Assembly: GCA_963804165.1 (NCBI GenBank)
Contig: CAWDPO010000002.1
Span: 128,001-192,000 of the forward strand
Reading direction: 5' to 3'
Length of the DNA: 64,000 nucleotides
Source: an uncultured delta proteobacterium
GTDB taxonomy: Bacteria; Desulfobacterota; Binatia; UBA9968
A program made the translations under genes and the position numbers. This document shows positions 9,231 through 62,149 of the stretch, in pieces (position 1 is the stretch's first letter; the number at the start of each line of letters is the position of its first letter). The notes beneath the pieces were generated by a model, which did no database searches, was not told the origin of the DNA, and worked only from the letters and a program-made list of their open reading frames with translations.

Positions 9231-11038
9231 CTATTTCTCCGCACCGCTTACCCGAATACCGAGTTCCCGAAGCTGGCGCGTCTCTACGCTCGACGGCGCG
9301 TCGGTGAGCATGCACACCGCGCGCTGGCTCTTGGGGAACGCGATCACGTCGCGCAGCGACTTGGCGCCGCTCAAGAGCATCGCCAGCCGATCGATACCGA
9401 AGGCAATGCCGCCGTGGGGCGGCGCCCCGAAACTCAAAGCCTCCAGAAAAAACCCAAACTTCGCTTCCGCTTCTTCGGCGCCGATGCCCATGAGGCCGAG
9501 AATTTTTTTCTGCAACTCCACTTGATGGATACGAATGCTGCCACCGCCGATCTCGATGCCGTTGAGCGCCAAATCGTACGCCTTGGATCGGCTCTTCGCG
9601 GGCTCGCTGTCGAGCAAAGGCAAATCCTCATCCAACGGCGACGTGAACGGATGATGCAGGGCAACGTAACGCTTTTCTTGAGGATCGAATTCCATCAGCG
9701 GAAAATCCACCACCCATACGAGCGCGTAATCTTTTTCCGGGATCAAACCGAGCTTTTCGCCCAAGTGCAGGCGCAGATTGCCGAGCGCATCGTGCACCAC
9801 CTTGGCGCGGTCGGCGGAGAATAGCACCACGTCGCCGACCTGTGCCTCCGCGATTTCTTCGATCGCCTTCTGTTCGGCCTCCGAAAGAAACTTCGCGATC
9901 GGCGATTGCCAACCTTCGGCGGTGATCTTGGTCCAGGCGATTCCTTTGGCGCCGAACGTCGCCACGAACGGGGTCATATCGTCCAAGTCTTTGCGCGACA
10001 GCGCCGCGCCGTTGGGAATGCGGATGCCTTTCACCACACCGCCGTTCTGAATCGCGCGCGGCAAACACCCGCGCCTGGCAATTGCGCAGAGCGTCGGTGA
10101 AATCCTTGATTTCCAAACCGAAGCGCAGTATCCGGCTTATCCGAGCCGAAGCGATTCATCGCCTGTTCGTAAGTCAAGCGCGCAAACGGACGCTTGAGCT
10201 CGATGCCTTTCAGCTCTTTGAATAAGAGCGAGATCATGCCCTCGACAACCTGCATCACGTCTTCGGGTTGGACGAACGACATTTCCATGTCGAGCTGGGT
10301 GAATTCCGGCTGGCGGTCGGCACGCAGGTCTTCATCGCGAAAACATTTGACGATCTGAAAGTAGCGGTCGAGTCCGCCGACCATGAGAATCTGCTTGAAT
10401 AATTGCGGCGACTGCGGCAGCGCATAAAACTTGCCGGGATAGATGCGGCTCGGAACCAAGTAATCGCGCGCGCCCTCCGGCGTGCTTTTGGTCAAAACCG
10501 GTGTTTCCACGTCGATAAATCCCAGGCCGTCGAGATAGTCGCGGATCGACTTCGTCATCCGATAGCGCAGCAGCAAATGACTCAAGCTCTGCGGCCGGCG
10601 CAGATCGAGATATCGGTATTTGAGCCGGGTGTTCTCGTTGGCGTCGGTTTCGTCTTCGATGACGAACGGCGGTACAGCCGACGCATTAAGCAAGCGCAGC
10701 TCGTTGCAAACCAGTTCCACTTCACCGGTAGCGTGATCGGGATTGATCGTCTCCGGCGATCTTTTGGACAGGGTCCCGCGTGCCGCGATGACGTCCTCGG
10801 AACGAATCTGTTTTGCTTTCTCGTGTGACGCGGCATCGACCTCCGGGCGAAATACCACCTGGCAAATACCGCTGCGGTCGCGCAGATCGACAAAAATAAC
10901 GCCGCCGTGGTCGCGGCGGCTATGAACCCAACCTACCAAGATCAGGTCACTGCCGACCGCAGCGGCGCGCGGTTCGCCGCAATAGCAGCTGCGTTTCCAG
11001 TCGCCCCACTGATCGCTAAACACTCTGTCCGTCGCCAT
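9231..11038 (-). CDS. aspS: aspartate--tRNA ligase (frameshifted near 10070-10130, probable sequencing error)
   Basis: [46 protein letters not shown] in ORF 10031..11038; [21 protein letters not shown] in ORF 9231..10064. Confidence 0.95.
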
Positions 11039-24388: not shown

Positions 24389-24689
24389 TAATGGTAAATA
24401 AACAGTTGACATTTTTGTCATAATTGTGCACTTAATGCGTCCGATTATCAGCCGGTCCAAAGTTGAATTGCATTATCTCCAATGAACGTCTTCTTCGACG
24501 GCTTGCAGCCGAACGCCGGCAGCTTGATTGCACTGTCAAGAGCCAAAGATAAAAATTAACAAACCCGATAATGACCGCATGGTTGAGAAACCCGTGTAGA
24601 AAATAGTTGGCAAGATCAAACACAGTAGAGGGTGCAAGAGGAAATAGATGTAACGCCCTATATCCCAAGGCTCACCGGGGGAAGTGTGT

Positions 24690-26235
24690 ATGGCCACCAA
24701 AGCGTTGAACCTATCGAACATTCAAGGAAACATAATCGGGGGCTTCAACAAGGATTTTCAAGACTTTTTGTTTCTACAATTTGCAGGAGCCGGCCATGCG
24801 CGAGCTTGGATCCGTGAAATCTTGAATCCAAAGTTTTCTCCTGGGCTCGCAAACTCAACCAGTCGGAACGTCCTAAAATTCAACGCTCAGTTCAAGGCGC
24901 TACGTGCCGAGGGTATCGAACCGGAAACGGTGATCACCTCTGAATGGACACACCTCGCAATTTCCTTTCTTGGCTTCAAGGCGCTGGGAATCTCCGCTAG
25001 ATCGCTGGCTCGTTTTCCGCGAGCCTTTCGCGCCGGCATGGCCGACCGGAAAAAGATCCTGGGGGACTTGGGTGCAAACGATCCAAAAAATTGGCTGCCG
25101 GCGTTCCAAGCGGGCAATATCCATGCCCTCTTAATCGTGGCCGCCGATAGCGAGGCGCAACTCAACCTCCGAGTTGATGCCTTGCAGAACTCTAGAATTT
25201 TCAAGAACGGAGTCAGAGTGCTCTATCAGGAACATGGCAGAACTCGCGAAGACGAACGCGGGCATGAGCACTTTGGGTTCAAGGACGGTGTATCCCAACC
25301 GGGAATTCGTGGGGTCACGCAGCCAACAGATCCTCTTGGCAATCCCCATTGCGGCCAACCGGGTCAGTCTTTGGTGTGGCCAGGAGAGTTCGTCCTCGGC
25401 TATCCGACGCAGAAACCCAAGCACAAGCCTGGAGTTGATGGCCCCAATCCAGATCCCGGGCCGCTCAGCAGATCGGGCCCCTCCCGGTGGACTACAGACG
25501 GTTCGTATCTGGTATTGCGCCGTTTGCGCAAGATGTGCTCGGATTTCGCAAACAACTAAATGACCTTGCGGAGCCAATGGTCTCACCGAAGATCTGATGG
25601 GCGCAAAACTTATGGGACGCTATAAAAGCGGCTACCCATTGATGCAGCGGGAATTTCATCGTCAATCAGCCATTCCGCCGGGCGCCGATCCAGGGAAGGT
25701 TCTTCCCGCGCTCAACAAGAGTGAAACGCTGAATAACAACTTTAGATTTGCCAATGATCCAAGCGGAGATGTGTGTCCCTTCGCGGCTCATATTCGGAAG
25801 GCGAATCCCCGTGATGAAATTATTTCAGACAATCCAGCGGACAGTGAAAGCCAGGTGCAAACCCACCGGATTTTGAGGCGCGGTATCCCCTTTGGCGCAT
25901 CTCTAGGCGCGCTGCGCGGCGGAGATGCTAATGATCAGCGAGGCCTCCTCTTCGTGTGTTTTCAGAAAGACATACAAAGGCAATACGAGTACGTGCAAAC
26001 CCAATGGATCAATAACATCAACTTTCCTCCGTCTGCTGCTGATGTAACGCCTGGTCCGGACCCAATTGTCGCGATGACTCATGGTGGACGATTTCATCTG
26101 GAGTCAAACAAATCGGCCGTTCACATTCAAAATTATGTCAAAATGACCGGCGGGGAGTATTTTTTTTCTCCGTCGTTGAAGACACTAAAAAAATCGGTCA
26201 ACATAAGATTTAAGGCGCGTCGGAACATCGCATAG
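24690..26235 (+). CDS. Dyp-type heme peroxidase (frameshifted near 25530-25580)
   Basis: NIQGNI, EHFGFKDGVSQP (GxxDG), GSYLVLRRL, CPFAAHIRKANPR, HRILRRG, GGEYFFSPS. Confidence 0.92.
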
Positions 26236-26331: not shown

Positions 26332-26631
26332 ATGGTCAAAGCAAAGGCTAAGAAATATTCTAAAAACGGACCACCGCGAAGGCCGAGAGGCAATGGGAAC
26401 GACGATCCGACCGAAGCCGTATTTCGCGTCGATTTAGAGACCGGAAAAATGCGCATTACCGACCAGAGGGGTGATGAGATCGTAGAGGACCCGGTCACTC
26501 CAGAAAAAGTCACCAAGTATGGGATCACTGAATGGGTGCCCTTGGGGCAGTTATTTTACGCAAAGTGCAATATTAAGCACGGCGGCTGCACCATAAGAAT
26601 AATCAACAACAGAGAAGTGTTAGTTTGGTAA
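26332..26631 (+). CDS. small hypothetical protein (99 aa)
   Basis: AAGGAGG RBS; basic N-terminus; C-terminal YAKCNIKHGGCTIRIINNREVLVW. Confidence 0.7.
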   Translation: MVKAKAKKYSKNGPPRRPRGNGNDDPTEAVFRVDLETGKMRITDQRGDEIVEDPVTPEKVTKYGITEWVPLGQLFYAKCNIKHGGCTIRIINNREVLVW

Positions 26632-26709
26632 GCCTCCTGGGCAGAAGCTAACTCGATCAGCCCAGCAGCTATTCCCACACGCGATCTCGGCCACACAACT
26701 GCAGCGGGC

Positions 26710-29700
26710 TCACGGTAGAGCCAAGCTGATGCGGCCGAAAATTGTCCTGGTTGGCTGAATCCGCGGGTTTTTGAAATCCAAGTCGAAATAGTTGAACTTT
26801 TTGTCCAACAAATTAGTTGCACCAATGGTGACAAATCCATAGCGCATCGGCAAGCGCCAATTCAGGGCAAGGTCCAGTGTCCAAAAATCATCGCTGCCGT
26901 TGCGCGAGACTCCGGCTACTTTGAGATTGAATTTTCCGTTTTGATGATAGTAGGTAGGCTGCAAGACAGCGCTCAGGCCTGAAGAGTGAAAAAAGTTCAA
27001 TCCCAGTGGCACTCGATGGGTATTTAGGCGAGCCGGAAAACTAGTCGTGCCTTCTCTGGTGAAATGTTCAAACTGATATTCGGTGCGTAGCGCAAACCAG
27101 GGATGTGGCGTCCAAAAGAAATAGACCCGACTCTGTTGTTCCTCTGCGTCCTGCATTTCCTCCACGAGCTGGCCGTTGTTGTTCAATCTCGTCAACGGCA
27201 CCTTTAGGTTTCTTCCTGAATATTCGATCCCGCCAAAGACTTCCTTGGTAAACTTTTGATCCACAGCGACTCCATAGCGCCACGCCTCGGTTCCATTGAT
27301 ATCATCGAAGAATTGATTGAACCCGGCGACTTGGGTGGGCTCAAGGGTTTGATCGGTTATCAATGTTCGCTTTAGCACGCGAAATGCCGCACCGCGAACA
27401 GTGGTATCGACCCATGGGTTCCAGACAATGCCGAACTTCGGATTGAATTGATCCTTGGATTCGAAATTGCCACCCCTCGTATCGACAAAATCGCCACTGG
27501 CGCCCAGCGTTACAGTCAATGCCTTTGTCGGACTCCAATGGAGATAGTTGTACAAGTTTACATGTTTTTGATCGTCGCTCTCGCCGGGAAAGGCAAGGAT
27601 GTCATCGGGCGGCGGGAGCGGTAACCCGATTGTCGTGAAAAACCGGCCGTTGATCTTCGCATAGCCAAAACCCGAGACGACGTTAAAGTATGTTGAGCGA
27701 TATAGATGCTGAGCTTCCCCCTGAAATAAGTCTTGCGGGTTCTTGAAATCTTGAAAGGTAAACAACGGTAGTAACTGATCGTCTTTCTGAGTAAATCTTG
27801 AGTGTTGAAAAATGAACGAGCCGAGCAATGTCGAATTCGATGTCAACGCGTGCCGGATCCCGAAGCGGGCCGTTTGGCGTTCTTCCCGATTGACTTCCCC
27901 AGGAAAAAAATCGTCGGGAAAAAATCGCAGTCTATTGTCGCCATATACCAGGCTTCGGTAACGATACTCCCCTTGAATGCTTGTGCTAGACGATAGTTCC
28001 GCTTGCACGAATGCATTGCCGATTGAATCTCGCTGGCCGATATTTTTGCGAAAACCATCAGTCTGAAAATGAAACCCCCCTAGGCTAAAGGAGGTCTTCT
28101 TATAAATTCCCGATAAGACTCCTTCCCCCGCGTAAGTGTTATTTTCGCCGGCCAGGCCGGTCGTCTGGAAATTAATCCCATTCCGATTAAACAGCGGATT
28201 AAACTCATTGAACGAGAAAACCGCCGGACCGGCGCTTCAATCAAGAGCAGATCGCTCTCAGCCAACCGCGGCTGAATCGGCGTCATGTTCAATGGCTGGA
28301 GCAATTGCGACTGCAATAGTTCGCTCACCCGGGCGATCTCGTGGCGTGGCAAAACCGAATAAGAGTCCGCAAGAAATCTGTGGGCGGAAAAATTCGTTGG
28401 ATCGGTATTGACCGACTTCCATCCTTCGACCAGCGCAAGCTGCTGAAACCCAAGATCGCTGTAGATTCGACCCAGGCTGGCGCTTCGTGCCGCGAGATCG
28501 GAATCGAGTTGAAGACTTGAGCGGTAGACTGCCCGATTGTCGTTTAACTCGATTGCTTTTTGTATGTCATGCAAAGCCTCGACCGGGCGGTTGGTGGTTT
28601 GCTTCGCAATAGCATCGTAGAACCAGGGTGTGGGATCCTTCGGGTCCAGTTCCTTGGCAATGGCATACTCGCGCTCGTCCCTTGGGCCGCGCTTCTCTTC
28701 AAAATAGGCTTTGCCCAAATAACTTCGGACGATCGAGTTGTTCGGGTCCAGGCTGGCAGCAATTTCAATCTCCCGTCTACCCTCCTGCAAATCACCCTCT
28801 CGGATCTTTGCTAGTCCCAGACCCAGCCTCGGGAGGTAATCGGCTTGGTCAAACTCAATCGCTTTTTCGAAGGCAGCCTTGGCCTCCGTGGTGTTGACCT
28901 GTGTCAGATAAGCGAATCCGAGGACCGTCCGCGTTCTCGACAGGTTTGGATCCAGAGCGACCGCCTTTTTGGCCGCTTCAAGGGCTTCGTCCAGATCGGC
29001 GAATGACATGTGGAGCTCCGCTAACCGCGCCCAAGCCAGGGTGTTTTCCGGGTTTGCTTGTACCGCCTGTTGCAAGCTGGTCCGCGCGCCTTCGAGATCG
29101 AAATTCGCCTGCTGACCGTAGGATAAAGCGATCAGCGCTGACGCGGATTTTGGGTCGCCTTAACGGCCTTCTGCGCGAGTGCAAGCGCTTTTTCCTTGTC
29201 GTTTTGGACAACGGCAATTATCGATTGGAGTGCGATGGCATCGCTGTATTTTGGATCTAAACTCAGTGCCCGCTCAAGATCCGGACCTGCTTCATCGACG
29301 CGCCCTACGGCAAGCAGCAAAGAGGCGCGGTAGGCAAAAAACCGTGGTTCCCGGAGATCGTTAGGCACACCTTTGATGGCCTCAAAGGCCCCCTGAAAAT
29401 CACCCTTCATGTAAGACTCAAGAGAGTTTCGCACCATCCCCTGCCAACCGGGCCCGGCTGGAAATTCCTCCGGGCGTAAATAGAGGGCGGGCGGATAGTA
29501 TAAGGCCCATTGAACTGCATCCCGGGGACGCACAACGGTGCGCAATACGGGAGCTTGTCCTCTTTCGGCTACAGCCGACTGACCATCGGTCAGCGTCACG
29601 CTCCCAGCTTGGTTCGAAGCCAACACCATACCCTCAAAAATCGTTATCAAGGCTCTGTCGGCCTCGACCTGAACCAAGCCCTCGGTTCCCTCCACACCAG

Positions 29701-30094
29701 CGTTGACGAACGCGGTGATGATCTCCAAATTGCGCGGCAGGCGGCTGAAAAAGTAGAGAGCGCCGCGGACCAGCTCGATGAGGGAGGTTCTCTCTTCTCT
29801 CACTCCTCCGAGAGTGATCGTGGTGTCTTGGTTCAGGCGGAGAACGGGTTGATTGACCAACGCAACATCAGCCCGGCTTCTCTCGCCAACCTGAATCCTA
29901 TCTCCTGGGCAATAGCCGTCGTTTAGTCGGGCCGGCTGCCATTGGGTCTGGCCCGCCCGACGAACTTCGACGCTCCCTTGAACAGAGACTAACTTGGCTA
30001 CAGGGGGATCGCAGGTCGTCGCCGCGAAGGACGGAATCGATGACAATAAACTAAGACTCGCGCAGAGCACCGCAATCCGTCGTATTCTGTTCAT
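26710..30094 (-). CDS. FecR domain + TPR + TonB-receptor-like beta-barrel outer-membrane protein (NsrA-like), split by frameshifts
   Basis: Signal peptide and FecR motif (GDRIQVG...AGVEGTE) in 29132..30094; TPRs in 28080..29075; barrel features NPKFGIVW, GFNQFFDD, TIGATNLLDK, PTRTIFGRISL in 26710..28008. Confidence 0.85.
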
Positions 30095-30408
30095 ACTATC
30101 AACTCCCGTTCTCCCTAGTCCTCTACAGGGAGCGTGTCGGAAATCGCCGTGGCCCTTCGACAGCGTCGAGGCAAACGACTAACCTGTTGAATCTCGATCT
30201 TGTGGCGTCTTTTCGTCGGCAGCTTGTCGAACAATGAATAGACTTTTGACATAGTCTGAGGAGAGAGTGCGAATGCGTTCGGGACGCATCGTTCGGGAGG
30301 AAGGTTTCCTTCGATAATTGATTATTGAAGAATCGGCTTTATGCGTGATTTATCTCCGCCCGTCATCAATCATCGACGTATATATCACAGGAATAGTCAG
30401 AATGGTTA

Positions 30409-32658
30409 TTATTTTTCGTCTATGGGGATCACGCCCGTCCAAGACCCATCAGGTGGATGCATCCGGTACTCCTTACAAAGTTTAAGGTAGAACAGTGACA
30501 GGCTATCTGCGCCGAGAATATCGATGCATTCATGAAATTTCTTTTCGGCATCGTCCCAAGCGCGCCGTCGGAATGCGCCTAGGGCGTCGGAAAAGATAGC
30601 GCAAGCCTGCTTCTGATTTTCATTGGCATCTTCCGCCCGATCTAGCAATTCGTAAACTACGACCGGCTGTGTCTTACCTCTCAGCAAGAAGCTCCCCGCG
30701 TTTCTCGTCATAAAATCATTTAAATCGTGGACGACCTCTTGAGAAACCAATATCTGAGTCCCTAGATATTTATTTAGACCGTCCAGCCGAGCCACTGTGT
30801 TGACCGTATCCCCCGTAACGCCATACTCATAATGATCCCCGGCGCCCATGTTGCCGAGGTATATTTCGCCGGCGTGGACCGCAATGCGGGTCGGAAGACT
30901 GACGCTCGCAAAGGCCTGATTGAATCGAACGACGGCTTTGGCAAGCCCCAAAGCTGCCGCACAAGCTTTTTTCCCGAGCGTCACGTCCGGACCTTGCGCC
31001 TGCCAGATAGCCAAAATCGAATCTCCCTTGAGCTCAACCACAAGACCGCCGTGTTGCTTGATCGGCTCAAAGGTGGTCTCGAAATACTCGTGCATGAGGT
31101 CGCTTAACTCCCGCGGACCCATCTTTTCCGACAGGTTCGTATAACCCGCAGCATCGGCGAACAAACAAGCACCGTAGACGGTTTGCCCGCCGCGTCTGAT
31201 ATCGACGATGTTTCGCGCCATCTGATTGACCACATCGTTCGGAACATAGTAACCCAACGCATTCCGAATATTCTGCCGTTCTTTGTTGGTTTCGAAATAA
31301 TTTAATAACATGGAGCCGACGATGCCGAGAGGCGTTTGCACAAGGAGCGGAATGACAATCGGATACCAGGTGGCTTCGGCTTTGAACTGATACTCGGCAG
31401 CCGCCAGATAGAGAAGGCTCAAAATCACAACTGCGACCGCAGCCGGTATGGTTCCGGTCGCGCGGCAGATCGTACCGATGACCATACCCCAGACGAGAAT
31501 AATGAAAATGTAGGAATATGAACTGATCGTTTTTACCGGTGAATCTTCGAGAAGATTCGCAAACGCCGTCGCGGCAATTTCCACGCCGCTGATAAATACG
31601 CCGTTGGCTTGTGAATAAACCGTATGGAAGCTGTCCTGTCGTTCCGCGAGCAAGATTTCCGAATATCCGACAAAAACAGCTTTCCCCTTGAGCTCCACCG
31701 GTTTTTTGTCGCCGGAAATTCCACCGGGGCGCAAGGCGTGATTATAGGGGACGGTCGTTAGCGTCCGGGGCGGACCGTAATAATTGAGATAGCGGCGATT
31801 TTCGCCGCCGTACATTCTTACAAGAGACTTGAGCAATCTGTACTTTTCGCCGTGGCTTGCCGCGAGATTCGAGCGCTCCAACTGCGCGATCATTTTCTCT
31901 GAAAGGGTTGGGTCGCTTTCAAAAATTTCCCTTATATCTCTCATGAATTTCGCGACGCCTCGGGCTTGTAGCCCAGTACCGACAGTCCACGGCAGCCTTC
32001 TCGCGTGCTGCGGACTGACCTTTTCGAGCAATGCAACGAAGTCGCGGTAGACCGGCAAGGCGTAAAGTTGGAACGTCACCACCGGGAAAGTGGGCAAGTC
32101 TCCCGCGCCTGACTGGAACGTCCAATACTGATTGATCCTCAAGGGAAATCTCGGCAGGACAAATGGCGCCGTGGCAAAAGCAGCCTGAGATATCGGCTGA
32201 ATTGTTCGCAACGGTTTTACAATAGTGTGCCCCATCGACCCGATGCCATCCGACGCAGGGACCTCTTCCACTCTGAGCGGCTCGGCAAGCACGACATTGC
32301 GAGCTCTATTGATCGCTGCGGCTAACGACGCGTCGCTCCCATCGGAACGGGGCTCGATAAAGTAAACGTCGAGCACTATGACCTTAGCACCTTCGCGAAC
32401 CAGTTGGTCAATAAGCTCCGCGTGGAGCGAGCGTGGCCAGCGATCTGGGTTTTGCGGCAAATTCAGACGCTCCGAGGAATCTCGGTCAATGCTGATAACG
32501 ACAACGTCGGAAGGCGCCTTGCTAACGCCCCTGAGTTTGAACAGCAACCCCAGCTCAAAGTCTTCCTCAAAGTGATGCGTGGCGGGGAAAAAACTCACCA
32601 CCAAGCCGGCTATCGCGATGAGCAAGCCAAAGACAGCGGCCTTTAGGAGGCGCAACAT
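30409..32658 (-). CDS. CHASE2-domain class III nucleotide cyclase
   Basis: DVVVISID, WPRSLHA, LKGKAVFVG, SGVEIAA (CHASE2); 3 TM; LFADAAGYT, GD, GDTVNTVARL, LRGK. Confidence 0.95.
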   Translation of the reverse strand: MLRLLKAAVFGLLIAIAGLVVSFFPATHHFEEDFELGLLFKLRGVSKAPSDVVVISIDRDSSERLNLPQNPDRWPRSLHAELIDQLVREGAKVIVLDVYFIEPRSDGSDASLAAAINRARNVVLAEPLRVEEVPASDGIGSMGHTIVKPLRTIQPISQAAFATAPFVLPRFPLRINQYWTFQSGAGDLPTFPVVTFQLYALPVYRDFVALLEKVSPQHARRLPWTVGTGLQARGVAKFMRDIREIFESDPTLSEKMIAQLERSNLAASHGEKYRLLKSLVRMYGGENRRYLNYYGPPRTLTTVPYNHALRPGGISGDKKPVELKGKAVFVGYSEILLAERQDSFHTVYSQANGVFISGVEIAATAFANLLEDSPVKTISSYSYIFIILVWGMVIGTICRATGTIPAAVAVVILSLLYLAAAEYQFKAEATWYPIVIPLLVQTPLGIVGSMLLNYFETNKERQNIRNALGYYVPNDVVNQMARNIVDIRRGGQTVYGACLFADAAGYTNLSEKMGPRELSDLMHEYFETTFEPIKQHGGLVVELKGDSILAIWQAQGPDVTLGKKACAAALGLAKAVVRFNQAFASVSLPTRIAVHAGEIYLGNMGAGDHYEYGVTGDTVNTVARLDGLNKYLGTQILVSQEVVHDLNDFMTRNAGSFLLRGKTQPVVVYELLDRAEDANENQKQACAIFSDALGAFRRRAWDDAEKKFHECIDILGADSLSLFYLKLCKEYRMHPPDGSWTGVIPIDEK

Positions 32659-32971
32659 ATTGCCGCTCCTCTTAGGTTCTCGATCCTTGCGTAGTCCTTG
32701 AAAAGCGTTGATCCTCCGCGCCTATCCCTGCCGAGACTGGATATAATCCAAGCCCCTTCATGCACGCAAGGCGCGCTCCGACGACGCAAAGCCAACGTGG
32801 CATGCTCCAACGCAACTCGTGTGCCGCGAGCTTTCTGTCTAGTAATCATTAACACAAGCTATGAAATCTAAGGAAATTACCTATTAGCAGTAGATTGACG
32901 AAGCATACGCATGTGCTTTAGTTCACGCCGGCGGCTACTAAAGTTTACAGTGCGAGACAAACTGGCAATGG

Positions 32972-34144
32972 CTAGAGAGGACCTTGCGGTAAGCGGCCGT
33001 TTGCTATGTCGCCCCGCTGGGCATCGGAAAAGGGCTGTTCCAATAACCGCGTATCCTGCTGCCGGGCCCGGAACAGACTCAGAATAAATTGCATGCGTTC
33101 AGAGATATCGGCCCAATCAACGGCTCCGCTAGCCAATGCGGTATTTCCATCGGCTCGATATTTCGCTAAGAAAAAGCGGAGATCCGGGTTGTCAATGAAT
33201 TGGAGATCAGCGGGAAAAAGCGATCGGCCCGGCAAGGGCCGCAAGTCTTTTCCCAAGTGAATTTCGCCGTCCGGCAAGCGCAGCGTCATAAAGACACGTG
33301 TCACACATTCGCGCCATATCCGATTCAACTCAGCATTCATTTCGGCGATAACCGGGTCGATCTCGCTAGCAAGCATACGGCCCAATCGCTTGCGCAGATT
33401 TTCTGAATACCTGCCGCCCGGGCCGCCATCGAACAACGACCGCAGCGCCGCGTCGAACGGCAGCTTCAGGGCTCCGGCGATGGCCGGTTGCAGCCGCACT
33501 TGTTCATGTAGCCCGGTTTCGGCGTTGGCGAGCAGAAAAAGGTCCGCTTTGCGATCCCCCTGGACCTCAAACTTTGCTTGATAAAAATGACGAACTGCGT
33601 CGCGCAGCAAACCCTGGCCGCCCTGTTCCGGCGGCCCGGGCCTCAAATTCAACTCGTCCAGCAAACTCTCGAGAATCCCGGCGTCGTAAGCCGTGCCTGC
33701 TCGAAAACGCGTGCACATAACGGTGAACAACGGGCCGAGCTCGGCGAACACCGCAAGATTGCCGGCTGCAATATCACGGCTTACCTCCACAGTTGGCGCC
33801 GCCAATGCTTGGACAATCGCCAGCCGACCGAGTCCTGCCGTGGCGTCAACGCGCCGTAGCAGCGTATTGATGCGATCGAGTTTTTCCGCCAACCTGCGGT
33901 CGCCCTGCAGTGCATCCCGAAACATCGCCACCAGCTCGCCGCGGATAAAACGTCCGGCCGTTTTCGAAGCCCACGTCGCGAACGTGCACCAGTTGACGTT
34001 TATTTCTGCGTTCGCCGACGCGATCGCCCGAGAGAGATCATGATAGCATTGGGTAATTTTCAGGTTTCGAATGACCGGCTCGCCGTCGAGCGCGATGATC
34101 GAATCAATCTCCTGCCGAGACGGCGGCTGTAACGATTCAATCAT
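32972..34144 (-). CDS. hypothetical protein (NWCTFATWASK motif)
   Basis: 390-aa intact ORF with RNLKITQCY, NWCTFATWASK, GNLAVF, GLHEQVRLQP, DWA...RM; function unknown. Confidence 0.8.
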   Translation of the reverse strand: MIESLQPPSRQEIDSIIALDGEPVIRNLKITQCYHDLSRAIASANAEINVNWCTFATWASKTAGRFIRGELVAMFRDALQGDRRLAEKLDRINTLLRRVDATAGLGRLAIVQALAAPTVEVSRDIAAGNLAVFAELGPLFTVMCTRFRAGTAYDAGILESLLDELNLRPGPPEQGGQGLLRDAVRHFYQAKFEVQGDRKADLFLLANAETGLHEQVRLQPAIAGALKLPFDAALRSLFDGGPGGRYSENLRKRLGRMLASEIDPVIAEMNAELNRIWRECVTRVFMTLRLPDGEIHLGKDLRPLPGRSLFPADLQFIDNPDLRFFLAKYRADGNTALASGAVDWADISERMQFILSLFRARQQDTRLLEQPFSDAQRGDIANGRLPQGPL

Positions 34145-45524: not shown

Positions 45525-46535
45525 ATGTTCCAGTTTCGCGTTATTGTTTTGCTCGCAACTTTAGTCCTATCTTTCAGCACTCCATCCGCCGTCGCCCAAC
45601 TCACCCGCCTCAAGACTTCGTACAGCGCTCTCACAGCGAACATGGCCGCCTATTGGCTGGCCAAAGACGCCAAGATTTTTGAAAAACATGGATTGAGTGT
45701 CGACGTCGTGCTGATCGAAAGCGGCGTCACCACAGTTCAAGCGCTCACGGCCGGCGAAACTCAGATCGCCATGGGCGGGGGCACCGTTGCCGTAAGCAGC
45801 AACCTCGCCGGCAGCGATATCGTGTCGATCGCCAGCATCGAGAGCCGCTTGCCTTATGCCCTGCTGGCGCAAAAAGAAATCAAAACCATCGATCAGCTCA
45901 AAGGCAAGCGGCTGGCAGTTTCGCGCTTCGGCAGCGCTTCGGATCTCGCCGCGCGCCTGATCTTGCAGCGCTACGGCTTGGTTCCCGACAAGGACGTTAC
46001 GATCCTTCAAACCGGCGGCACCAGCACGCGCCTATCCGCGCTGAGCAAACGCAGCATCGACAGCACCGTTCTCACGCCGGAATTTTTCAATATCGGGAAA
46101 AAGGCCGGCTTCACGATTCTAGTCGATCCGACACAGTACGATATTCCATTTCCCCAGTTGGAAGTCATCACCAGCCGGGCGTTCCTCAAAGCGCAGCCGG
46201 ACATCGCGACCCGCTATCTGCGCGCGATTATCGAAGGTATTTACACGGTCAAAAACAACCCAGAGCCGAGCATCCGCGCCCTTAGCAAATATCTGAAGAT
46301 TGATGACCGCGAGGCACTGGAAGAAGTTTATCGCCTTTACCGGGAGATCTATCCCCAAGTGCCGCACGTCTCACCCGCCGCGATTCAAACTCAGCTCATC
46401 TGGATGGCCGAGCGCGATCCGCGCGCGAAAGCGGCAAAGCCGGAACAATTTATCGACGGCTCGATTTTACGGGAAATCGAGAAGAGCGGGTTCGTAACTA
46501 AACTGTATCAAAGAAATAGTCTCTCGAGCGTTTAG
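45525..46535 (+). CDS. ABC transporter substrate-binding protein, NitT/TauT type
   Basis: Signal peptide; FEKHGL, LKGKRLAVSRFGS, FIDGS..EIEKSG. Confidence 0.88.
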   Translation: MFQFRVIVLLATLVLSFSTPSAVAQLTRLKTSYSALTANMAAYWLAKDAKIFEKHGLSVDVVLIESGVTTVQALTAGETQIAMGGGTVAVSSNLAGSDIVSIASIESRLPYALLAQKEIKTIDQLKGKRLAVSRFGSASDLAARLILQRYGLVPDKDVTILQTGGTSTRLSALSKRSIDSTVLTPEFFNIGKKAGFTILVDPTQYDIPFPQLEVITSRAFLKAQPDIATRYLRAIIEGIYTVKNNPEPSIRALSKYLKIDDREALEEVYRLYREIYPQVPHVSPAAIQTQLIWMAERDPRAKAAKPEQFIDGSILREIEKSGFVTKLYQRNSLSSV

Positions 46536-46567
46536 TTCTTGTTTCGCCGCAGGCGCGGTCGGTCACC

Positions 46568-48003
46568 TCACTGCAGCGCGATATCTGGTCGTCTTCTACC
46601 AAATCCAGTAGCCTGCTCAAACGCGTGGGCGATTTGTAACACACCGTGGTCATCGCGATAACGGCCGACGATTTGGATGCCCACGGGCAACCGTCGTCGG
46701 TGAATCCGGCGGGTACCGAGATCGCCGGACAAAAAGTCGGCGTGATCCAATACGCGCTCTTCATCCAATCGAGGTAGGTCTCCATCTTGATTCCCTCGAT
46801 CTCATGCGGCCAGGCGATTTTCGCATCGAAAGGCGGCACCTGATTCACGGCGCAAAGGAGGAATTCATACTTCTCCTGGAAAACGCGCATACGCTGCATC
46901 AGTTCACCGTGGTGCGCCATTGCATTGGCGATGTCGCTGCCGCTCAATTTGCTTCCCGCCTCGATCTGCCAGACCGCTTCGGGTTTCATTTCGTGGCGAT
47001 GTTTTTCCAGCAGCGGACCGAGCGTATGCCAGTAATTCCACGCGCGGATCGTGAGAAATATTTCATCGGCGCCGCTCAGGTCGGGACAAGCGTCATCGAC
47101 AATACAGCCAAGATCGATAAACGTCTTTCGTTGCCCTTCCAACACGGATCGAACGCTACGGTCGAGCGGCAGACCGCCCAGGTCGGGGCACCAGGCAACC
47201 CGCATGCCTTTAAAATCCCGATCCAAAGGTTTCGCAGAATACAGTTGGATCGAATGGATACACGGCGGGATCGCGCGCATCGGCCCCTGCCATGACACTC
47301 AATAGAAAAGCGACGTCGGCAACCGAACGCGCCATCGGCCCCTTAACCGTAAAACCTAAAAACGGCAACGCAGTCGGCGCGGACGGCACGAGTCCGACGG
47401 TCGGACGCAACGCGACGATGTTGTTGAAATTCGCCGGATTGCGCAGCGAACCGCCAAGATCGCTGCCGCTCGCGAGCGGTAACAAGCCCGCGGCAAGCGC
47501 GGCGCCGGCGCCGCCGCTCGAACCGCCGGCGCTTTTCGTCAAATCGTAAGGATTGAGCGTCGTGCCGTACACGTCATTGTACGTATGCGAGCCCATGCCG
47601 AACTCGGATACGTTGGTCTTCGCCGATAGGAATAACTCCCGCATGCTTCAATCGCTCGACAAGAACCGAATCTTCGCGCTGGCACGAAGTCTTTGAATAT
47701 TTTCGAACCGCGCGTCATCGGAAACCCGACGGCAGGGTCCAAATCTTTGAAGGCAAAGGGCAGGCCGTGCAGCGCACCGATCTCCTCGCCACGCGCGAAC
47801 CGTCGGTCGGCTTCGTCCGCAAGCGCAAGACACTTCTCGTCGTCGAGCTTCGCTACTATCGCGTTGATTTTCGGATTGAGGCGATTAATTTGGCGCAGAA
47901 ATGCGCCCATGACTTCGCGCGCTGATGTGCGGCGAGTGCGAATCAACTGCGCCAATTCGCGCGCGCTCATGAAGCATAAATCACTGTCTCCGAGAGTGGC
48001 CAT
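46568..48003 (-). CDS. amidase (amidase-signature family, frameshifted)
   Basis: LHGLPFAFKD, KTN, GGSSGG, GSDLGGSLRNPA. Confidence 0.9.
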
Positions 48004-48051
48004 CACTAGGCTGCCATCAGCATTGGCAGCGGATCAGAGTCGCGTCCGAGG

Positions 48052-52925: not shown

Positions 52926-54769
52926 ATGCGCAGCGACTTCAAAAACCGGCCGTCGAACGATTACGAAACCTTTCCTCGTGAAGCTCTCGACCAATCCATC
53001 GGCGCGCGGTTCGACGAGATCGTGCGCCGGTTTCCCAACAAGCTGGCGGTGCGCACTAGAAAGTATTCATGGACCTATGCCGAGCTGAACACCCGGGCGA
53101 AAAACATTTCTCGGGCGATAAACGGGCACGCAATCTCACGCCCGGCGCCGATTTTGCTCCTTTTCCATCACGATGCGCCGGCGATTGCCGCCGTGCTCGG
53201 CGTCTTGAAATCCGATCATTTCTACTGCGCTCTGGATCCTTCCGTGCCGCTGGAACAAAACAGGACTATCCTTCAACTGCTGCGTCCCCGAGTGTTGCTT
53301 TGCGATCGCGCCAATCTCGACACGAGTGAGAAACTCGCGGAGGGTAGGATCCCGATAGTGAACAGCGACGATGCGCCGGTCGAAACCCGGCCGCGGCGCT
53401 TCGCAGGTCCAAGTTTCCCGGCCGCGCTGGCCTATGTGTTTTTTACTTCGGGAACGACGGGGAAACCGAAGGGCGTCATGGATTCGCATCGGAACGTGCT
53501 GCACAATATTCTCCGCTACACCAACAATCTTCATATCACCGAGCGACGACCGCATCACCTTGTTACAGACCTTGAGCTTCAGCGGTTCCGTATCGAGTTT
53601 GTTTTGCGCCCTGCTCAACGGCGGCACAATTTATCCTTTCGACCTCCGCCGGGAAGGACCCGACGGCTTTAGCGGATTGGATATCGGAGCAGGAAATCAC
53701 GATTTATCATTCGGTGCCGTCAATTTTTCGTCTGATCGCCGGCGAAGGACGCCGCTTTCACCAAACTGCGCCTCATTCGACTGGAAGGCGATCAAGCATC
53801 CCCCGCCGACGCCGCCCTATTTCAGAAAAATTTTCACGCGTCCTGCAGTCTCGTCAACGGACTGGGCGCCACCGAGTGCGGCATTGTCCGGCAGTTCTTT
53901 GTGGGCACGGATTCACCGCCTCCTCACCGGTCCCTGCCAATTGGCCATGCGATCGAAGATATGGAGGTATCGGTGCTCGACGAGCAGGGATGTCCGGCGC
54001 CCTGCGGCGACATCGGTGAAATCGCCGTAAAAAGCCGCTATCTCGCGGTCGGTTACTGGCGGCAACCCGATCTGACGGCCGAAGCCTTCAAACCGGCATT
54101 CGACGATCCGGAAGCGCGTATTTACCGCACCGGCGATCTTGGTCGATTGGACGAAGACGGCTGCCTCGATTATCTAGGGCGAAAAGATTTTAACGAAAAA
54201 GTCAGGGGCCAGCGCGTAAACTTGGCGAATATCGAGGCCGAGTTTCTACTCATCGACGGCGTTCGGGAAGCTGTTGCGGTCGTGCAAGGCCTGACCGGCA
54301 AGGTGAAAATCAGATCGCCGTTTACTATACTGAATGGGATGACCAGCCGGTGAATCTCGACGAAGTTTGGAACCGTTTGCGCGATCGCCTCGAAAGCCAT
54401 TCGCTGCCCTCGGCTCTGATAAAGCTTGATCGCCTGCCGCTAACTGCCAACGGCAAAGTCGACCGGCGTGCTTTGCCGCATCCTCACAAGCAGCGCCTGC
54501 TCGCCGCACCTGCGACTCCGCCAAAAACTCAAAGCGAGCTCAGACTCGTCGCCATCTGGAAAGACATCCTTGGCCTGGATCAGATCGGAATCGACGATTC
54601 CTTCCTTGAACTGGGGGGCGATTCGTTACAACTCATGCGCATGCTCAACCGAGTACGGCAAATCTTCGAACAGGATGTATCGATTCCCGAATTCTTTGCT
54701 TCTCCAACCGTTTCTGCCTTGGCAAAAATTCTGGGCAGCTCAGATAAAATCGTCAACAGTTCATTTTGA
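52926..54769 (+). CDS. stand-alone NRPS-like adenylation + carrier (A-T) protein (frameshifted)
   Basis: YVFFTSGTTGKPKG, GATE, YRTGDLG, KVRGQRV, NGKVDR, LGGDSL. Confidence 0.88.
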
Positions 54770-61682: not shown

Positions 61683-61868
61683 ATGTCTAAAGCGAAAGAA
61701 GAGCTGACGAAACTGATCGAGGAGCAACCCGACGACAGTTCGCGCGAGGAGATCGTACGCGAACTGGCATTTCACGTTATGGTTCAGCGGGGGCTTGCTG
61801 ATTCTGACGTAGGGCGAGTCATCTCGAATGATGAAATGGCGCGGCGTATCCGTTCATGGCAGAAATAG
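61683..61868 (+). CDS. putative type II antitoxin
   Basis: 61 aa, PDDSS.EEI...RGLAD..GRVIS; overlaps the toxin start. Confidence 0.8.
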   Translation: MSKAKEELTKLIEEQPDDSSREEIVRELAFHVMVQRGLADSDVGRVISNDEMARRIRSWQK

Positions 61869-62149
61869 CTTGGACGGAAGAAGCTCTGCGTTGGCTCGAG
61901 GACATCTTCGAGTACATTGCCGTGGATAATCCGAGTGCCGCCGCCCAAACGGTCAACGGGATCTATGAAAGAGCCCAAACGCTGGCAAACTTTCCTGAGA
62001 TGGGCCATCGCTACTGGGCATCGAACCGCCCTGTGCGAATTCTCCTTTACGGCCACTACCGCATCGCCTATCTGATCAAGGACAATGGAAACATCGATAT
62101 CTTAGGCGTCTTCCATGGCTCCCTGGATATCACCAAGTATCAGCTATGA
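61856..62149 (+). CDS. RelE/ParE family toxin
   Basis: WTEEA..LEDI.EYIA.DNP.AA, FPEMG, YRIAY, ILGVFHG. Confidence 0.92.
   Translation: MAEIAWTEEALRWLEDIFEYIAVDNPSAAAQTVNGIYERAQTLANFPEMGHRYWASNRPVRILLYGHYRIAYLIKDNGNIDILGVFHGSLDITKYQL

Follow-up and report, generated by a model that had tools for sequence, protein, structure and literature searches.

The window analysed here is a stretch of 64,000 nucleotides from an uncultured delta proteobacterium (assembly GCA_963804165.1, contig CAWDPO010000002.1, positions 128,001 to 192,000; GTDB lineage Bacteria, Desulfobacterota, Binatia, UBA9968). On its minus strand, an open reading frame (ORF) at 30409-32658 is open across 749 codons and encodes an intact class III nucleotidyl cyclase of the receptor type, here called P0001, whose closest relatives have 750 amino acids (aa) and can be aligned with it from end to end. 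This ORF is free of frame-breaking indels, though the assembly holds many elsewhere. A sequence-only reading of the same DNA had proposed that P0001 may be a guanylate cyclase (GC), one of the few in bacteria, and the substrate of this enzyme is the subject of the present study.

P0001 matches two Pfam families, CHASE2 (PF05226, E 1.8e-29, residues 33-395) and Guanylate_cyc (PF00211, E 1.4e-13, residues 498-665; 51.3 bits against a cut-off of 21.9), and the NCBIfam library gave no model for the cyclase. Membrane helices were placed by Kyte-Doolittle hydropathy together with an AlphaFold2 model (mean predicted local distance difference test score, pLDDT, 83.8). The protein consists of one N-terminal membrane helix, a periplasmic CHASE2 domain, three helices (residues ∼379-452), a cytoplasmic cyclase domain and a three-helix C-terminal extension, which is nearly invariant in the family at W701, F708, Y724, P735, P736 and W740. 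For the three-helix block, the hydropathy windows are 377-404, 400-425 and 433-452, and the model helices are 380-400, 403-428 and 435-468. The features of the locus, all on the minus strand, are as follows (rows are those of the 270-row alignment described below):

32577..32640, minus strand: N-terminal transmembrane helix, residues ∼7-27 (Kyte-Doolittle; model helix 2-22)
31474..32562, minus strand: CHASE2 periplasmic sensor domain, residues 33-395 (Pfam PF05226)
31303..31524, minus strand: three transmembrane helices, residues ∼379-452, which bring the chain back to the cytoplasm
30664..31167, minus strand: class III cyclase catalytic domain, residues 498-665 (Pfam PF00211, phmmer against PDB chains, Foldseek)
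31153..31155, minus strand: Asp502 (GAT), first metal-binding Asp (aligned with Cya2 Asp448; 270/270 rows)
31033..31035, minus strand: Glu542 (GAG), first base-selecting position, in GGLVVELKGD (aligned with Cya2 Glu488)
31027..31029, minus strand: Lys544 (-2 residue), which DSSP of the model puts together with Glu542 in strand 539-544
31021..31023, minus strand: Asp546 (GAT), second metal-binding Asp, four residues past Glu542 (aligned with Cya2 Asp492; 270/270 rows)
30886..30888, minus strand: Arg591, phosphate-binding Arg at the canonical position (Arg in 268/270 rows)
30820..30822, minus strand: Gly613 (GGC), second base-selecting position, in HYEYGVTGD (aligned with Cya2 Gly562)
30787..30801, minus strand: transition-state pair in TVNTVAR, Asn620 (AAC, 30799-30801) and, after Ala623, Arg624 (CGG, 30787-30789)
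30412..30621, minus strand: C-terminal three-helix extension, residues 680-749 (model helices 680-697, 701-715 and 719-733)
26710..30094, minus strand: gene for an NsrA-like outer-membrane protein with signal peptide, FecR domain, TPR repeats and TonB-receptor-like beta-barrel

A phmmer search against all chains of the Protein Data Bank (PDB) gave 32 sequences at E<=1e-3, with 6fht (1.2e-18) as the best and 2w01 (1.7e-16) as the second. The latter is the catalytic domain of Synechocystis Cya2, and the former is a phytochrome fusion of Cya2 carrying the E488K exchange (PMC5995499; here and below, PMC5995499, PMC7529298, PMC5192318, PMC4215837, PMC7384201, PMC13001267 and PMC10127613 are cited for those parts of their text that were available). 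The HMMER alignments with both chains are gapless from Glu542 to the metal-binding Asp and around Gly613. With the Cya2 residue numbers of Table 1 in PMC6005667, Asp502, Glu542 and Asp546 correspond to Asp448, Glu488 and Asp492, and Gly613, Asn620, Arg624 and Arg660 to Gly562, Asn569, Arg573 and Lys608. As an internal check, 6fht (Lys) and 2w01 (Glu) differ solely at the column aligned with Glu542, and because their difference falls exactly there, this column is the specificity column. BLASTP against the CHASE2 cyclase of Sinorhizobium meliloti pSymB placed Glu542 opposite Lys and Gly613 opposite Ser.

Codons were taken from the reverse strand, base by base and by script. GGLVVELKGD with Glu as GAG at 31033-31035 and EYGVTGD with Gly as GGC at 30820-30822 (Gly613) were found as the sequence-only reading had given them, and codons and alignment bear out that both metal-binding Asp residues and the Asn/Arg pair of VNTVAR are intact. 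Its view that the Glu/Gly pair is Cya2-like also stands, since Glu542 and Gly613 align without gaps with Glu488 and Gly562 of Cya2. It had further named as a possible objection that the Lys of ELKGD, rather than the Glu, might occupy the specificity pocket. In the alignments with Cya2 and the pSymB cyclase, Glu542 stands opposite Glu488 and Lys, respectively, and this Lys, Lys544, falls in the -2 column, where Cya2 has Met and the pSymB cyclase Ile. As an aligned specificity residue Lys544 is ruled out, because all alignments are gapless between it and the metal-binding Asp.

All catalytic residues are present in P0001, i.e. both metal-binding Asp, the Asn/Arg pair and the phosphate-binding Arg/Lys, and Lys662 is invariant across the 120 close relatives introduced below. 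Judged by these residues, P0001 is a catalytically competent class III cyclase. A Foldseek search with its model gave a probability of 1.00 and target TM-scores (TMt) of 0.78-0.82 to cyclase domains, with 0.81 for both 3r5g and 2w01; among the matches listed, no solved structure corresponded to the CHASE2 part. The active-site residues all lie in one chain, as in homodimeric enzymes, and P0001 would thus be a class III cyclase of the homodimer type.

To place these residues in the family, two sets of relatives were used. A word-indexed search returned 2346 proteins at E<=1e-3, of which the best 120 (90%-cluster representatives, full-length, 56-84% identical) form the close rows. An exhaustive search of 50%-identity representatives returned 68,231 at E<=1e-3 and 5175 at E<=1e-30, and the best 150 of these (35-55% identical, nearly all from end to end) form the distant rows. 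Counts per column come from a MAFFT alignment of all 270 rows. The catalytic positions are almost without variation: Asp502 and Asp546 each in 270/270 rows, Arg591 in 268/270, Arg624 in 266/270 and Asn620 in 265/270. At column 542, the distant rows have D 110, N 20, Q 5, E 5, G 3, K 3, S 2, R 1 and T 1. The ATP-type Lys is therefore found there in 3/150 distant rows and in 0/120 close rows, which counts in favour of a GC. Column 613 is Gly in 115/120 close rows and Arg in 113/150 distant rows. Among the distant rows, Asp/Arg is the commonest pair (94), the textbook Lys/Asp pair occurs 3 times, and Glu/Gly is found in none of the 150 (5 have Glu, 1 has Gly, none both). Since Asp/Arg dominates and Lys/Asp is so rare, the large family of CHASE2 cyclases to which P0001 belongs is non-canonical overall, and Glu/Gly is a minority state within it.

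A FastTree phylogeny was built from 127 rows, comprising the 120 close rows, P0121 (the nearest 50%-identity representative) and six more representatives as outgroup; the trait columns were excluded from tree building and Cya2 was not among the rows. The clade of P0001 counts 16 rows, has a local support of 100% and spans 64-84% identity; all its rows read Glu-x-Lys-Gly-Asp and, at column 613, Gly. Its sister group comprises 9 rows with Asp/Gly and Gly/Gly, and one further Glu row, P0058, has a separate origin on the tree. Because all 16 clade members, on other contigs, share both residues, the Glu/Gly pair is inherited and is neither noise nor a base-calling slip. A sequencing error at the Glu542 codon was considered and is ruled out by the conservation of this Glu in 16/16. 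Its retention at 64-84% identity, with full local support, also argues that Glu is under selection in this clade. Other clades likewise hold their own residue at column 542 (His in 11/11). A genome scan gave 8 relatives at 54-65% identity, none with Glu at 542; the named relatives in this range come from metagenome-assembled genomes labelled Candidatus Binatia, Nitrospira, Syntrophobacteraceae, 'Deltaproteobacteria', Methylomirabilota and Chloroflexota. As the Glu clade nests within Asp/Gly and Asp/Arg relatives, its pair is convergent with that of Cya2 and not inherited from a common source. We read the order of changes as Asp/Arg, then Asp/Gly, then Glu/Gly: an ancestral Asp/Arg pair would first have exchanged Arg for Gly and then, in a single clade that counts 16 or more sequence clusters, Asp for Glu.

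Position 544 follows position 613. Residue 544 is hydrophobic in 91/114 rows with Arg613 and in 0/116 rows with Gly613; of the latter, 77/116 have a Lys or Arg there. This pattern suggests that the basic partner of the acidic residue has shifted from 613 to 544; it may be a charge compensation, in essentially one clade and hence in few independent events. The residue triplets at 542/544/613 are clade-specific (EKG, DKG, NKG, HAG, DEG and DAG). In the AlphaFold2 model, DSSP assigns residues 539-544 to one strand, which would place Lys544 on the same strand face as Glu542. A Lys that supports the specificity Glu has been described, without a residue number, in PMC6005667. With its place on the modelled strand face and its presence in 17/17 Glu rows, Lys544 is a candidate for this role, and it may either partner Glu542 or be a pocket residue itself.

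Taken together, we consider it an evenly balanced judgement, made on residues and relatives, that P0001 prefers GTP; cyclic GMP (cGMP) would then be its most likely product, possibly with residual synthesis of cyclic AMP (cAMP). cGMP comes first because Glu542/Gly613 is the Cya2 pair, in which Glu bonds guanine N1/N2 and Gly gives room. In Cya2, the single E488K exchange turns the GC into an adenylate cyclase (AC) (PMC5995499). According to reviews, Glu is the main GTP determinant with help from Lys, and Gly is a steric element together with Tyr (PMC6005667). In a fungal GC bound to GTP, the Glu-N1/N2 bond is described as the main and one canonical guanine-specific contact, and the second residue as shape-giving (PMC7384201). 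Cya2 uses Arg450 for phosphate binding (Table 1 of PMC6005667); P0001 has Ala504 in its place, which we regard as harmless because the canonical phosphate-binding Arg591 is present, as in 268/270 rows. In the literature outside subscription journals, Cya2 was the only CHASE2 guanylate cyclase found, and no description of an Asp/Arg cyclase was found. Several Glu-type bacterial cyclases have reportedly been validated as GCs by Ryu and colleagues, which we do not use as evidence.

Several observations weigh against a preference for GTP. First, column 542 varies among close orthologues, the 120 close rows having D 55, N 29, E 17, H 11, G 5, S 2 and Q 1. It needs at least 14 changes on the 127-row tree, and in 121 close rows it changes 12 times, which is the median of all 749 positions; 39% of cyclase-core positions change as often or more, and the catalytic residues 0-1 times. 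Such variability fits a position that has no fixed role as a specificity determinant in the family of P0001. Our own reading is that column 542 matters and that its optimum has moved repeatedly. Second, the Tyr just before the transition-state Arg greatly enhanced the GC activity of Cya2 (PMC4215837, citing Rauch 2008). Cya2 Tyr572 corresponds to Ala623 in P0001, and Tyr is found in 0/270 rows at this column, which in the 16-row Glu clade has Ser 11 times and Ala 5 times. Third, in Ma1120 the exchange of Lys for Glu and Asp for Gly left kcat/Km at 1.92 for ATP vs 0.29 for GTP, and only with the added Tyr were the two values equal (0.224 for ATP and 0.225 for GTP; PMC4215837). Fourth, on the modelled strand Lys544 could neutralise Glu542 or itself reach the base. 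Fifth, the fold is equally near to adenylate and guanylate cyclases (TMt 0.81 for CyaB, an AC, 0.81 for Cya2, a GC, and 0.82 for CyaC, an AC), so that the Foldseek result bears nothing on specificity. Sixth, a search for cyclic nucleoside monophosphate (cNMP) binding proteins came back empty within the window: Pfam gave no cNMP-binding domain among its 73 ORFs of at least 90 aa, and tblastn with the cNMP-binding transporter of a related locus (L004, see later in the text) gave no match. The cyclase orthologue that stands beside this domain in L004 is an Asp/Gly enzyme, and the motif of the domain cannot tell cAMP from cGMP.

The assignment of P0001 as a GC is thus plausible as a reading of one conserved Glu at an unusually free column, in an enzyme that does not have the Cya2 Tyr. 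Of the original proposal, the residues, their columns and their conservation in 16/16 clade members hold, and the variable column 542 of the orthologues, the missing Tyr and the Ma1120 precedent leave its step to a GC less secure. That P0001 would be 'one of the few' bacterial GCs appears doubtful, as the clusters of its clade, at least 16, would probably be GCs too if P0001 is one.

The first alternative is that P0001 is an AC with a non-canonical pocket, in which the base is no longer chosen by the classical columns and Glu542 is among several polar residues tolerated there. We hold this to be rather doubtful. It would account for a column that varies like an average residue, with seven residues among the close orthologues, but not readily for the strict residue of each clade (Glu 16/16, His 11/11), which argues for function and not drift; moreover, an acidic side chain is unable to donate the Lys-type hydrogen bond to adenine N1. 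In mycobacteria, cyclases whose pair is Asn/Asp or Gln/Asn still make cAMP. The missing Tyr and the preference for ATP that Ma1120 retains with Glu/Gly (PMC4215837) also favour an AC, as does the fact that the studied CHASE2 cyclases with an NsrA partner, CyaK and CyaD1/CyaD2, make cAMP (PMC7529298, PMC13001267). Against this, the choice between GTP and ATP depends in Cya2 on the Glu alone (PMC5995499).

We consider it unlikely that P0001 is a dual or promiscuous purine cyclase and forms cAMP as well as cGMP, in a ratio tuned from clade to clade by residues 542 and 544. The Ma1120 triple mutant with Glu, Gly and Tyr is described as 'impartial' (PMC4215837), cAMP and cGMP are both recognised by receptors such as S. 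meliloti Clr (PMC10127613), and the clade-specific triplets (EKG, DKG, NKG, HAG, DEG, DAG) would suit such tuning; however, the natural Glu-type cyclases studied so far are GTP-specific, as reported for Cya2 (PMC5995499, PMC6005667). Also improbable is a further, family-wide alternative, in which the NsrA-linked CHASE2 cyclases would not be a cAMP family at all, guanine being read by the acidic residue together with Arg and later with Lys544. The -4 position would then act as a selectivity switch still in evolution (Asp, Asn, Glu, His, Gly), through which different clades make different purine or even other cNMPs. The Glu/Gly clade would have come upon the Cya2 solution a second time on its own, and cGMP signalling would be widespread among uncultured bacteria of soil and sediment, Binatia for example. 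Finally, another product (cyclic CMP, cyclic UMP or a non-cyclic one) or a signalling-dead pseudoenzyme is very improbable: the only points in favour are the non-canonical pocket and a partner gene that is frameshifted in the assembly, whereas the catalytic residues are intact and conserved, the ORF has its full length, and the partner frameshifts sit at short homopolymers and match many other split genes of the window. The architecture of P0001 is that of receptor cyclases and presumably not that of the phage-defence pyrimidine cyclases.

The partner gene lies downstream of the cyclase on the same strand. In the assembly it runs through three frames (29156-30094, 28233-29156 and 26710-28236), and the called ORFs are 29132-30094, 28080-29075 and 26710-28008. 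A tblastn search with P0271, a relative of 1131 aa, placed its residues 4-312, 313-620 and 620-1131 in frames -1, -3 and -2, respectively, and because P0271 aligns contiguously over the three ORFs they are one gene. In each of the related loci L001-L005, the cyclase is followed by one unbroken ORF, which has 1126-1140 aa in L001-L004 and, as called, 1040 aa in L005, and Pfam finds FecR, TPR and TonB_dep_Rec_b-barrel in L001:6011-9406. The CHASE2 cyclase and the NsrA-like protein are thus a conserved gene pair. The gene is not intact in the window, with two frame changes near 29156 and 28235 at short homopolymer runs. Since the window holds four or more other genes that are split likewise, these are likely assembly indels, with real decay as the less likely cause. 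The regions with split ORFs are 9231-11038, 24684-26235, 46498-48006, 52926-54353 and 26710-30094; the genes concerned are those of an aspartyl-tRNA synthetase, a DyP peroxidase, an amidase (three pieces), an AMP-binding enzyme and the NsrA-like protein. They indicate an indel-prone assembly, and widespread gene decay is less likely.

Among relatives, the FecR/N-terminal part of the NsrA-like protein is better conserved (69-91% identity) than the cyclase (56-84%), which fits a constrained interaction surface. A complex prediction with CHASE2 residues 28-376 (120-row alignment) and FecR residues 25-250 of the neighbour scored 0.00 and is uninformative both ways. The gap between the two genes (30095-30408) has 314 bp, compared with 56 bp in L001, and nothing was recognised within it. 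A promoter and terminator scan of 26500-33200 gave promoter-like sites no more numerous than in shuffles and nothing usable. The ORF upstream of the cyclase on the same strand (32972-34144, minus strand, 390 aa) is not beside the cyclase in L001-L008; it matched no Pfam or NCBIfam family, and its best Atlas score (0.75) was too low for use.

Among the related loci, L004:6930-9593, directly upstream of the cyclase orthologue, encodes a cNMP-binding domain (Pfam E 9.4e-28) fused to a transporter of the Na/sulfate-symporter family, which may be a direct effector of the product of the cyclase. Of this gene, L003:59-916 holds the 3' part, with 89% identity over 285 aa. On the contig of the L003 orthologue, a second, shorter CHASE2 cyclase (L003:11031-13500, 627 aa, Asp/Gly) lies beside a CHAT-domain ORF. 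Elsewhere in the window, the ORF at 61856-62149, plus strand, encodes a toxin of the ParE family, as in type II toxin-antitoxin pairs (Pfam E 5.4e-17).

Few bacterial guanylate cyclases have been shown experimentally, and bacterial cGMP signalling is poorly mapped. If the clade of P0001 makes cGMP, it would be a second, independently evolved lineage of CHASE2 guanylate cyclases, and cGMP would be tied to an NsrA-type outer-membrane sensing route in uncultured phyla. If P0001 makes cAMP, the two-residue rule fails to transfer to the NsrA-linked CHASE2 family. The more unusual result is at the level of the family: judged by the aligned residues, the ATP-type Lys is almost absent from a very large set of NsrA-linked CHASE2 'adenylate cyclases', and the blanket annotation of these proteins as adenylate cyclases is unfounded. 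This family offers a natural series for the study of nucleotide choice (Asp/Arg, Asp/Gly, Asn/Gly, His/Gly and Glu/Gly), with >54% identity within the Gly subfamily.

Among known systems, P0001 resembles Cya2 in its order of CHASE2, membrane helices, class III cyclase and C-terminal extension (PMC5995499, PMC6005667), and in having Glu/Gly at the base-selecting columns, both metal-binding Asp and the Asn/Arg pair. In Cya2 the extension is needed for activity (PMC5995499). However, the two proteins share only 26% identity over 200 structurally aligned columns, and P0001 has Ala623 in place of Tyr572, Ala504 in place of Arg450 together with the canonical Arg591, and Lys544 in place of Met.

The neighbourhood resembles that of S. 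meliloti CyaK, CyaD1 and CyaD2 with NsrA, in which a CHASE2 cyclase gene adjoins a gene for a FecR, TPR and barrel protein of ∼1130 aa. In pSymB (L009), the CHASE2 cyclase (Lys/Ser) directly adjoins an ORF of 1131 aa or more in which FecR and TPR domains are found; we take these ORFs as cyaK and nsrA from their position and architecture. The pSymB cyclase differs from P0001 in its residue pair (Lys/Ser vs Glu/Gly), its sequence (25% identity) and its reversed gene order, and P0001 is without the ATP-type residues (Lys with Ser, Thr or Asp) of the CyaK type. NsrA is an outer-membrane protein with a barrel at residues 600-1200 and is needed together with CyaK to sense a protein signal (PMC7529298). 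In the 'BiofilmReg' system of Burkholderia, a gene for a periplasmic FecR-domain protein also stands beside a CHASE2 sensor, but the output is a histidine kinase and the FecR protein has LysM instead of TPR and barrel (PMC5192318). FecR genes beside CHASE2 kinases suggest a general FecR-CHASE2 partnership, and these neighbours, with the joint requirement for NsrA and CyaK, make an input path from the outer membrane to the cyclase likely. By analogy with NsrA/CyaK, the NsrA-like protein would probably relay an extracellular signal across the periplasm, through its periplasmic FecR/TPR part, to the CHASE2 sensor held between one N-terminal and three further membrane helices, and from there to the cyclase.

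Finally, Ma1120 K101E/D157G(/A167Y) has the Glu/Gly pair of P0001 as well, introduced by engineering into a class III scaffold from bacteria, and the pair lifts GC activity 4-5 fold without inverting the preference alone (PMC4215837).

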